Source of the DNA: a virus
Lineage: Duplodnaviria; Heunggongvirae; Uroviricota; Caudoviricetes
Virus record (IMG/VR): IMGVR_UViG_2526164664_000023
DNA: 25,327 nt
Reading direction: 5' to 3' (one strand)
Shown: positions 6,001 to 9,000 of the stretch, in pieces
How the letters are laid out: the number at the start of each line of letters is the position of its first letter
Position numbering within the stretch: position 1 is the first letter of the stretch
Program-made: the position numbers

Positions 6001-9000
6001 GCGCAATTTGCTGTGGCTAGCAGACAGTTCTGCTATGCACTTCTCTGCGGCATCGGCTCGATCTTTTTCACGCTGGAACATTTTGTGAGTGCGGTCTATA
6101 GCTTCGATTCGTGCCGCTGATGTCTTCTGCACGGCTTCAAGCTCAACACGCAGCTTCCCAACCGTAAGAGCAATATCCTCGTTCTTCTGGTCGCGGCGTT
6201 TGATGTATTGCTGGTTTCTTTCCCGTTCATCCAGTAGTGCCAGCACGGTTTCTGGCCCGGTCAGAAATTTGAAGGCGTTGAGCGCATCAATATCCACACC
6301 GTAATCCTTAAGTTCCTGTTCAGTTAACAAATCATCATCAACTGGCAACATTAACAGGCGTTCCATTGCCGGAATTGCACGCTCTGCCGCCTCACGCAGT
6401 GCCTGATAGTCAATCTTGCTCATTGGATGACTCCTTTACGAAGCTGTTCGGCGATATCTTCGAGAACGCCATCAGAGAATGAACGGTCAAAATCGCCTTC
6501 CGGCGCATTGGCCATAAACTCAGTAGAGGTAAGAATCATCCGGGCAATATCAGCGGCGTTCTTCGCAGTATCATCAATAAAACCAGCTTCCCAGGCAGCC
6601 AGCATTCTGTTCGCCACAAAGTAAGCGCCCTCCTTGCGTGCTTCAGTCTTCACTTCAGCCAGAAAAGCATCGGTGGCTGGGGTTTCAGTAATATCATCTT
6701 CCCATTCGCTAAACTCCTCACGACAAAAGTCATTAAATTCCTTCTCAGATTGCTTAAGCGAGGAATTTTCAGCAGCCATCTTCGCGCATTTAGCCTCAAG
6801 GTTATCAATCGTGATTCCAGCAGAACGACACTCCCGCAACGCCGTTTCTAGTTTTGATTCAAGTTCACCGAACTTACGGACAAGATATTCATCGTTTGTT
6901 TCGTCAACCTTTAAATCACTTGGGATGCATTTACCTTTCAGAAAACCATCCATCTCAATTAGTGTCATTTGTTTCATTTCTTCCCACTCCGCCACATCGC
7001 ATTCAGATATTTGTTGTCATTAACAGAACCGAAACTCTTTCTCTTAAGCAATTCCTCTCTCGATGGCATTGGCTTTGCGCGTTGGCGAATAATCATTTCT
7101 GCCGGAAGAATGCCGGGATTGTATGCAAGTCCTCTCATGGTAAATTCCTCAGTCATTACTGATAGCGCCATAGCGTGAGCGGTAATTACGCAGGCGCGGG
7201 TCAATTTCAGGGAAGTGGGTATATGTGGCTTTGCGGAATGGTCGGATTGATGTCTGGTAAATTCGCTCGCGTTCTTCTTTCTCTGCAAGCCATATACAAT
7301 GGCGAAATTCCTTTTCCTCTTTCGTTTCCTGCGGTAGCGACATTATCCGATCGTAGTTTTTTCTGAATTTATCCAGCACCTCCGATACGGAATTGCCGGA
7401 ACAGCGGCGCGCGTCATCCGCACCATACAGAGGCGCTGGCATAATTAAATCCTTATTTTTCTAAATCAGAATGGGATGGAATCGTCGTATACAGGAGTGT
7501 TCTGCTGGTTACTACTTTGCTGCTGCGGGCCATTTCCTGAAGCTGCAAATCCAATCTTTGCATTCAGTAATTCAAGAGTGATTGATTGACCATTTTGCCC
7601 CTGATAAACATCAACCCTGATGTTTTCTCCGGTAATTTCCACAATGCCACCTTCAACAAGAACACTACGGTAGTAATCCGCTTGCGCTCCCGGCTTGGCA
7701 AATACAACGGCGCTGTAGTTTGTCCATTCTTTCTTTTTTGTCTGGCGATCGTAATACTGAACGCCAGCACGGATGTTGAATCCGATATTTTCCCCGGTCT
7801 GAAACTCTCTTGCGGGCTTGTTTAGTCTTACAGTAATCGAATGTGCCATTAAGCAGCAGCTCCTTCTAATTCGTCTCGTCTGATGTTGTAAACGTCCTGC
7901 GCTTTGTGCTGCTCCGGTGTGCCTTCGAGCATCTTCCACGCTTTGGCGAACGCCTGTTTAAGCTCTTCTACGGTGTTTTTCTGCATTGCTGCGTCAGTGA
8001 ATGCTTTTAGAACCTGTTCAGGTGTAGGTGATGGTTTTGATTGCTTTGCTGCTGCGTTCTGCTGATGTTTATGCTCGTCGGTATCTGCATCTTTCGCATC
8101 ATCAATGCCGAATAAACCATTGAGGCAATACTTGCGTGCATAAGAGCTTGTAGCTCCCGTAACTTGTGCAGAATCCATTCCTTTCTTGCTTTCTTCCTCT
8201 CGTGCAAGAGCGGTTGCCGTATGACTGTTTTCGCCATCGGTAATAGTTGCCGTGGCTTTCACATAATACCGATCACCAATCAACACAACTTCATCGCTGA
8301 TTGATAAAAACAGGCCATTCAGTAACGGCTTAACGCCTTCAAGAATATCTTCGCAGCTTCTGTATTTATATTTGCCGAATGAGTTGTACTGATTCTTTGG
8401 CGCGTTCAGATTCTCCTGAATAGCTGCCAGTCTTGCGTAAAATTCTTTGCTCATATGATTGTTCTCAGAATGGACACGGCCCAAGGAAATAACGCTGATT
8501 TAATACTTCGACTCGGGACAAATTAAGGCATACCCGCATTCCTTCGCGGTCACCATTATGGCGATACCAGAGAGCTTTCTGCGTGTACATGCGCCTCTGT
8601 AACTTGCTCTCCTTCACTGTGGTTGCAAGTGACATGAATATCTCCTTCGTTACCGATTAATTCTTTCATCTGACGAATGAATTCTTCGTCTGACCAGTTA
8701 TCTGTAAAACTCATTTCCTGCGATAACACGGAAGGTTGATAGCTGATTTCATCGCTTTATTTGCTTCAAGCCACATTTTTGAATCACCAATAAATCGGGC
8801 TATTACTGCCTTGTTCTGTGCAGCACGAAGCATCTGGTGATTGATGGCTATTTCATTGCGCATAATAAGACCTCAACTCTTTTCCATCCGTCACGTAATT
8901 TACGGGTGATTCGTTCAAGTAAAGATTCATTTAATTGGAAGGCACCCATGCGAGCGCCTCCCGCGATTGCGTAAATCATGGGTGGTTCCTTATGTTGGTT

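Follow-up and report, generated by a model that had tools for sequence, protein, structure and literature searches.

The window examined here is a stretch of 25,327 nucleotides (nt) of viral DNA (Caudoviricetes; IMG/VR record IMGVR_UViG_2526164664_000023), and all positions below refer to it. It carries, with a probability that we put at about 0.8, an HK97-type recombination module of an E. coli lambdoid prophage at the lambda attachment site (att) beside ybhC, in which erf, a gp40-type gene for a single-stranded DNA (ssDNA)-binding protein (SSB) and abc2 lie on the early-left (PL) strand and would act together in the manner proposed below. Judged by its sequence, the module is the already described HK97 erf-gp40-abc2 cassette ('SAP + SSB-1b + Abc2'), and the arrangement is not new and is widespread. 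An earlier reading of the sequence alone had placed genes for an Erf-family annealing protein and a short SSB-like protein at 7466-8454, with no mention of strand; these coordinates hold exactly two adjoining genes, both on the minus strand, and abc2 is the third member of the module. Its parts are as follows (aa, amino acids).

8454..7849, minus strand: erf, 201 aa plus TAA (stop 7851..7849), N-terminus MSKEFYARL, an Erf-family single-strand annealing protein.
7849..7466, minus strand: SSB-like gene of the HK97 gp40 type ('SSB-1b'), 127 aa plus TGA (stop 7468..7466), MAHSITVRL...PVYDDSIPF.
7541..7849, minus strand: predicted OB-fold core of the SSB-like protein, aa 1-103, from the AlphaFold 2 (AF2) model and conserved residues.
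7487..7540, minus strand: predicted disordered linker rich in Q, N and P, aa 104-121 (18 aa), with a predicted local distance difference test (pLDDT) score <50 at residues 107-121.
7469..7486, minus strand: acidic C-terminal tip DDSIPF, aa 122-127, read from the sequence.
7847..7865, minus strand: erf/ssb junction, AAGGAG at 7865..7860 followed by TA[A]TG, read directly.
7442..7149, minus strand: abc2, a 97-aa anti-RecBCD protein (PF11043, E = 5.6e-63).

The 201-aa protein had been read as an Erf-family annealing protein, which is correct. It scored 151.6 bits against Pfam PF04404, above the curated gathering cutoff of 25 (E = 2.1e-44; profile positions 1-146 of 153), which places it in the ERF superfamily, and it matched PHROG 155 ('Erf-like ssDNA annealing protein') with E = 2.1e-57; its RefSeq name from the Prokaryotic Genome Annotation Pipeline (PGAP) is 'ERF family protein' (WP_000031370.1). 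Relative to Erf of phage P22 (NC_002371), aa identity was 75% across the full length. It reached 88% (136 of 154 positions) over aa 1-150, which are homologous to the N-terminal DNA-binding, ring-forming domain of P22 Erf, and 33% (17 of 52) over the C-terminal ~50 residues (aa 151 to the end). We identify the protein as Erf, a single-strand annealing protein of the Rad52 superfamily for which annealing and ring formation are predicted from this homology.

The 127-aa protein is labelled 'hypothetical protein' by RefSeq in the 100%-identical E. coli genomes, where both coding sequences are called identically. Searches of the sequences in the PDB, with single sequences and with profiles, returned nothing useful for either Erf or the SSB-like protein, so that the link of the latter to SSBs needed alignment of profiles by hhalign and comparison of folds. 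It matched PHROG 44 ('single strand DNA binding protein') with E = 2.7e-27, and a 32-sequence alignment of its family (A1) matched E. coli SSB in hhalign with 92% probability (E = 6.7e-7). In one profile alignment, Y32, W42 and F50 of the protein aligned with W40, W54 and F60, the ssDNA-stacking residues of E. coli SSB; within A1, F50 is invariant and conservation at Y32 and W42 is 90% or higher. All three lie in the OB core, and their near-invariance argues that DNA binding has been retained. The AlphaFold model (pLDDT 84) predicts an SSB-type OB fold with strands at residues 3-8, 14-18, 21-34, 39-51, 69-74, 76-84, 87-95 and 98-103 and a helix at 55-63, mostly at pLDDT >90, and fold searches with it returned almost only SSB and PriB structures, at an identity to SSBs of no more than ~18% in the structural alignments. 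The profile searches that had been suggested as a check of the sequence-only reading thus gave an Erf signal far above chance and an SSB/OB-fold signal in PHROG 44 and in the profile-profile comparison.

The C-terminal tail was also as first read: the protein ends in ...PVYDDSIPF, which closely resembles the DDDIPF at the C-terminus of host (E. coli) SSB (PMC5928155). Members of its family (118-215 aa) share a conserved core of ~100 aa, a variable linker rich in Q and P, and a conserved acidic tip, which ends in IPF in 65 and in PPF in 13 of 107 full-length representatives (78 together); about one fifth of the members lack the tip. A subgroup from Serratia, Rahnella and Chimaeribacter (P0059, P0063, P0066, P0069 and P0078) ends in WDD(A/S/T)PPF and not in DDSIPF, like the NDYPPF of the HK620 SSB, and in a few members the tip is absent or is followed by a short extension beyond IPF. 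Among 1.84 billion representative proteins, the family profile matched only 224 clusters at 50% identity (E ≤ 1e-3), which makes the family a compact one. No bridge from the family profile to canonical SSBs was found in that library, and a single distant member (P0264) matched PF00436, at 21.1 bits and below the cutoff of 26. A precomputed SSB domain from Pfam was present in none of 120 listed homologs, most of which are named 'hypothetical protein'. These comparisons of sequence and predicted structure support a reading of the 127-aa protein as an OB-fold SSB that has diverged so strongly as to be recognisable only by remote-homology and structural methods, and that would bind ssDNA and adopt an SSB-like oligomeric state.

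The TAATG overlap reported from the sequence is real: the erf stop codon (TAA, 7851..7849) and the next start codon (ATG, 7849..7847) share the A at 7849, an overlap of 1 nt. The same overlap appears in the PGAP calls of 100%-identical E. coli genomes and in the annotation of HK97, and an equal one joins erf and abc1 in P22 and the Sak4 and SSB-like genes of a Leminorella prophage. From this overlap, translation of erf and the SSB-like gene is probably coupled. The SSB-like gene also has a good Shine-Dalgarno sequence of its own, the AAGGAG lying 10 nt 5' of its ATG.

abc2 lies 23 nt 3' of the SSB-like gene, and its product (PGAP name 'phage anti-RecBCD protein') is 93% identical in aa sequence to Abc2 of P22. 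Downstream on the same strand, Abc2 is followed by DUF2737, Ead/Ea22-like genes, xis and int, and then by ybhC (the lambda att region). Upstream of erf lie three further genes.

8979..8851, minus strand: cIII, lambda-type.
8863..8714, minus strand: kil, lambda-type.
8559..8714, minus strand: a 52-aa acidic open reading frame (ORF; PGAP hypothetical WP_000010964.1) lying between erf and kil where P22 has arf, whose membership of the module is uncertain.

The lambda/P22 mosaic that had been recognised from the sequence was borne out, with kil and cIII of lambda type and erf and abc2 of P22 type. The statement that the pair stands in place of lambda Red needs qualification. Its position, between kil/cIII and ea/xis/int, is as described, but the replacement is not like for like: there is no exonuclease, and abc2, which stands for gam, had been missed. 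Between kil and the Ead/Ea22-like genes, the ORFs are the arf-slot ORF, Erf, the SSB-like gene, Abc2, DUF2737 and a coiled-coil ORF; among them we found no Red-type Pfam match (YqaJ-type Exo, Beta or Gam) and no nuclease gene. The arf-slot ORF had no Pfam match and shares with P22 Arf only a 7-residue motif, (W/F)SDEEFI, with E = 0.013 in a single comparison, which is too weak to call it Arf; by its sequence and place it may be an Arf analogue or a possible accessory. A scan for promoters and terminators over 6900-9200 gave nothing above shuffled expectation, with no obvious terminator within the module.

The cassette is common. Relative to HK97 (erf, gene 40, abc2), window positions 7400-8520 are 97.5% identical in nt sequence, and many HK-series, P22-like and Shiga toxin (Stx)-converting phages are 96-100% identical over the same interval. 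Of 5426 complete E. coli genomes, 1026 contain it (556 of these with coverage of at least 80%), and 77 of 80 near-identical viral contigs have both termini of Erf, the SSB gene and abc2 all together. The product belongs to the HK97 gp40 family by close homology and by the place of its gene between erf and abc2; 'Bacteriophage HK97 gp40' is a UniRef name among its matches.

Since a scan of viral contigs with the family alignment returned near-identical loci only (≥97%), distant synteny was taken from contigs encoding distant homologs, a sample of six relatives (50-56% identical) with the loci L084-L090. The SSB-like gene lies immediately 3' of an ERF gene in L084, 3' of an exonuclease-ERF pair in L085 and L086, 3' of ERF and YqaJ in L089, and three genes after a Rad52-like gene (a faint Pfam match) in L090. 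In L087 (2138-3417; a Leminorella grimontii prophage) a relative 51% identical directly follows a Sak4-type AAA_24 gene with the 1-nt overlap mentioned above; a Lar restriction-alleviation gene and a homolog of DNA polymerase III theta lie in the same neighbourhood. We count five of the six with the SSB-like gene no more than three genes downstream of an annealase gene, from three annealase families. By this variety of neighbours, the family thus consists of SSBs of recombination modules, paired with annealases of several families, which fits the shuffling described in the literature.

We propose host RecBCD as the resection engine because none of the module's genes encodes a nuclease. Abc2 would bind RecBCD (through RecC, by analogy with P22) and reprogram it to resect the ends of phage DNA and feed Erf; the Murphy model, in which Abc2 of P22 acts on RecC to convert RecBCD, has structural support (PMC9836394). 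The phage SSB would coat the ssDNA generated by RecBCD/Abc2, its acidic tip would recruit Erf or pass the DNA to it (and possibly also engage host proteins that read the SSB tip), and Erf would anneal complementary strands. The contacts of the tail and the cooperation of the SSB with Erf are suggested by analogy with two known annealase-SSB systems: in HK620 the last six residues of the SSB are needed to stimulate its annealase in vivo and in vitro and to stimulate recombineering (PMC5928155), and in staphylococcal phages annealase-SSB pairs act together (PMC5499656). The identities of the genes, the predicted fold, the architecture of the family and the conserved neighbourhood are direct results of the comparisons above.

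Three results weigh against such a recombination module. The SSB-like protein had no Pfam match at E ≤ 1 (and so none to PF00436 or DUF669), it scored 13.6 bits against TIGR00621 (cutoff 53.95), and in L088 no annealase gene lies near the SSB-like gene. The first two also limit what had been claimed of the protein from its sequence, in that PHROG 44, hhalign, the fold searches and the architecture point to an SSB, whereas the Pfam and TIGR00621 models miss it. The locus without a nearby annealase would suit a different role, in which the 127-aa protein is a replication SSB at phage forks that came to lie beside erf only through the packing of early-left genes and does no work with Erf. Such a role would also accommodate the OB fold and SSB-like tail, the recruitment of replication proteins by the tail of host SSB (PMC5928155) and the requirement of a staphylococcal phage annealase-SSB pair for replication (PMC5499656). 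We nevertheless regard it as improbable, as the lambdoid replication genes O and P are found in the opposite arm, the SSB-like gene is embedded between erf and abc2, and its distant relatives mostly keep close to annealase genes of three families; moreover, roles in replication and recombination are compatible.

A somewhat smaller likelihood attaches to the idea that the protein is mainly a mimic of the host SSB tail, which would titrate or redirect host proteins that bind the SSB tip (such as RecO, ExoI, RecQ and PriA) or form mixed oligomers with host SSB, biasing repair to the phage pathway or evading defence, with coating of ssDNA secondary. DDSIPF is near the host DDDIPF and is kept across the family while the linker varies freely, and the linker, at 18 aa, is minimal in what is an unusually short protein. 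Yet the three aromatics that align with stacking residues are invariant or nearly so, and the tip is absent from about a fifth of the members. That the protein is a functional equivalent of P22 Abc1, a RecBCD-directed accessory, seems to us very unlikely indeed. The gene has exactly the position of abc1 between erf and abc2 and overlaps erf by 1 nt just as abc1 does, the function of Abc1 is unknown (PMC9836394), and the HK620 SSB was itself originally annotated as abc1 by position (PMC5928155); however, BLASTP gave no alignment of the SSB-like protein with P22 Abc1 at E ≤ 100, and the fold and architecture indicate an SSB. Each of these three explanations is less well supported than cooperation of the SSB with Erf in recombination.

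Within the HK97-type module, the boundary of similarity to P22 falls inside erf. Identity in nt to P22 is 77-88% from 8454 to ~8040, falls to ~23-53% (effectively unrelated) from ~8030 to 7470, and rises to 95-97% in abc2. This drop between conserved flanks points to an exchanged cassette, in which the 3' end of erf plus the SSB gene stands against the 3' end of erf plus abc1.

7466..8030, minus strand: cassette that is mosaic with respect to P22; the SSB-like gene together with the final ~50 codons of erf, vs abc1 and a different 3' end of erf in P22.

One refinement of the recombination module, which we hold to be rather doubtful, is that the last ~50 residues of Erf and the downstream gene were swapped as one cassette since the C-terminal domain of Erf is a partner-specific adaptor; the small SSB would then be a functional replacement of P22 Abc1, loading Erf onto ssDNA generated by RecBCD/Abc2 via its host-mimicking tip. 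Co-evolution of the Erf C-terminus with the SSB was not supported, as Erf C-termini beside distant SSB-like genes are unlike that of the window Erf, and the two may have been exchanged together simply from physical adjacency. A further locus, L013 (1815-3001; a viral contig), was considered as a swap of Erf domains and was rejected as evidence that these are modular, because its erf had been cut to the last ~60 codons by a rearrangement; the remnant abuts an oppositely oriented DnaB-like helicase gene, with the SSB-like gene and abc2 intact. If true, the adaptor reading would explain the role of Abc1 and define a minimal three-gene recombineering set without an exonuclease.

What the analysis adds is real but ordinary. 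It gives the correct function of a protein that is still annotated as 'hypothetical' by RefSeq across about a thousand complete E. coli genomes, and a further example of the shuffling of phage recombination genes; the practical value is small. The concept of an annealase-SSB pair is already established in other phages, and Erf with its cognate SSB, with or without Abc2, is a reasonable candidate for recombineering and for studies of annealase recruitment by SSB tails.

Outside the module, the window carries several features that bear on the state of the prophage.

3582-4845, plus strand: IS600 (IS3 family), complete, 1264 bp, with orfA 3646-3948, orfB 3984-4802 and a 3-bp target duplication.
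9117-9863, minus strand: a 248-aa ORF with an extreme content of E, A, K and R (EAKAKAE-type repeats), with relatives in RefSeq called 'cell envelope biogenesis protein TolA' pseudogene (internal stop).
19284-20243, minus strand: an LpxR-family lipid A deacylase, from the annotation of a 99.7%-identical record.
23266-24740, plus strand: two consecutive ORFs (23266-23838 and 23826-24740) immediately ahead of the holin, which correspond to a DUF6645 gene annotated as frameshifted in RefSeq relatives.

IS600 has entered the early-left arm, with the ea-type genes to one side and xis/int to the other, on the route that PL transcription takes to xis-int. The prophage of strain 2013C-3252 (otherwise 99.7-100% identical) carries the same element instead at ~8683, between kil and the arf-slot ORF and upstream of erf, and strain E2865 has several copies of insertion sequences. 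A long ORF on the strand opposite to the 248-aa ORF (9130-9648) is probably an artefact of low complexity. The LpxR-family gene lies upstream of Q on the opposite strand, adjoins a truncated antiterminator gene and has the look of a moron, or cargo, inserted into the nin/Q region. Given IS600, the truncated antiterminator and the frameshifted DUF6645 gene, the prophage may be partly defective. In the nin region, a NinB/Orf-type recombination mediator (16367-16777, plus strand) and a RusA Holliday-junction resolvase (18525-18887, plus strand) indicate that the right arm supplies recombination functions beyond erf, ssb and abc2. There are no stx genes within the window, though the erf region is 100% identical to that of Stx1a-converting phages.

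Compared to known systems, the module is closest to that of HK97, with which it shares the three genes, their order, the 1-nt erf/gp40 overlap and the flanking kil and cIII; the two have point differences only, and HK97, whose annotation gives gp40 no function, is a free phage, whereas the window copy is a prophage associated with Shiga toxin-producing E. coli, at ybhC and with IS600. Against E. coli Ssb, the window protein has in common the OB fold, the aligned stacking aromatics, the disordered linker and an acidic D-D-x-I-P-F tip; unlike Ssb, it falls below all curated sequence thresholds, and its linker is ~18 aa long where that of E. coli SSB is ~55 aa. In P22 the order is arf-erf-abc1-abc2 after c3 and kil, likewise with no phage exonuclease and with RecBCD hijacked via Abc2 (PMC9836394), but Abc1 stands where the window has the SSB-like gene, and the arf slot holds in the window a different, 52-aa acidic ORF. 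HK620 has an annealase, an SSB with a host-like C-terminal tip (HkaK) and Abc2 in the same order (PMC5928155); its annealase, however, is the RecA-like Sak4 and not Erf, and its SSB is unrelated and of the SSB-2 (DUF669) type, to which the window protein, with its SSB-type OB fold, does not belong. The lambda Red genes lie at the corresponding point of the PL operon, with kil on one side and ea/xis/int on the other, and have the same overall job of RecA-independent annealing recombination and neutralisation of RecBCD, whereas the window has no Exo, Erf for Beta, Abc2 (a modifier of RecBCD) for Gam (an inhibitor of RecBCD), and an extra SSB (PMC12315714). In the survey of 325 lambdoid phages in which the HK97 arrangement was classified (Genome Res 2025; PMC12315714), HK97 gp40 was described as having a predicted structure like that of bacterial SSBs with little sequence similarity and was named 'SSB-1b', and the combination of an anti-RecBCD protein, an SSB and an annealing protein without a nuclease is a recognised class of module.
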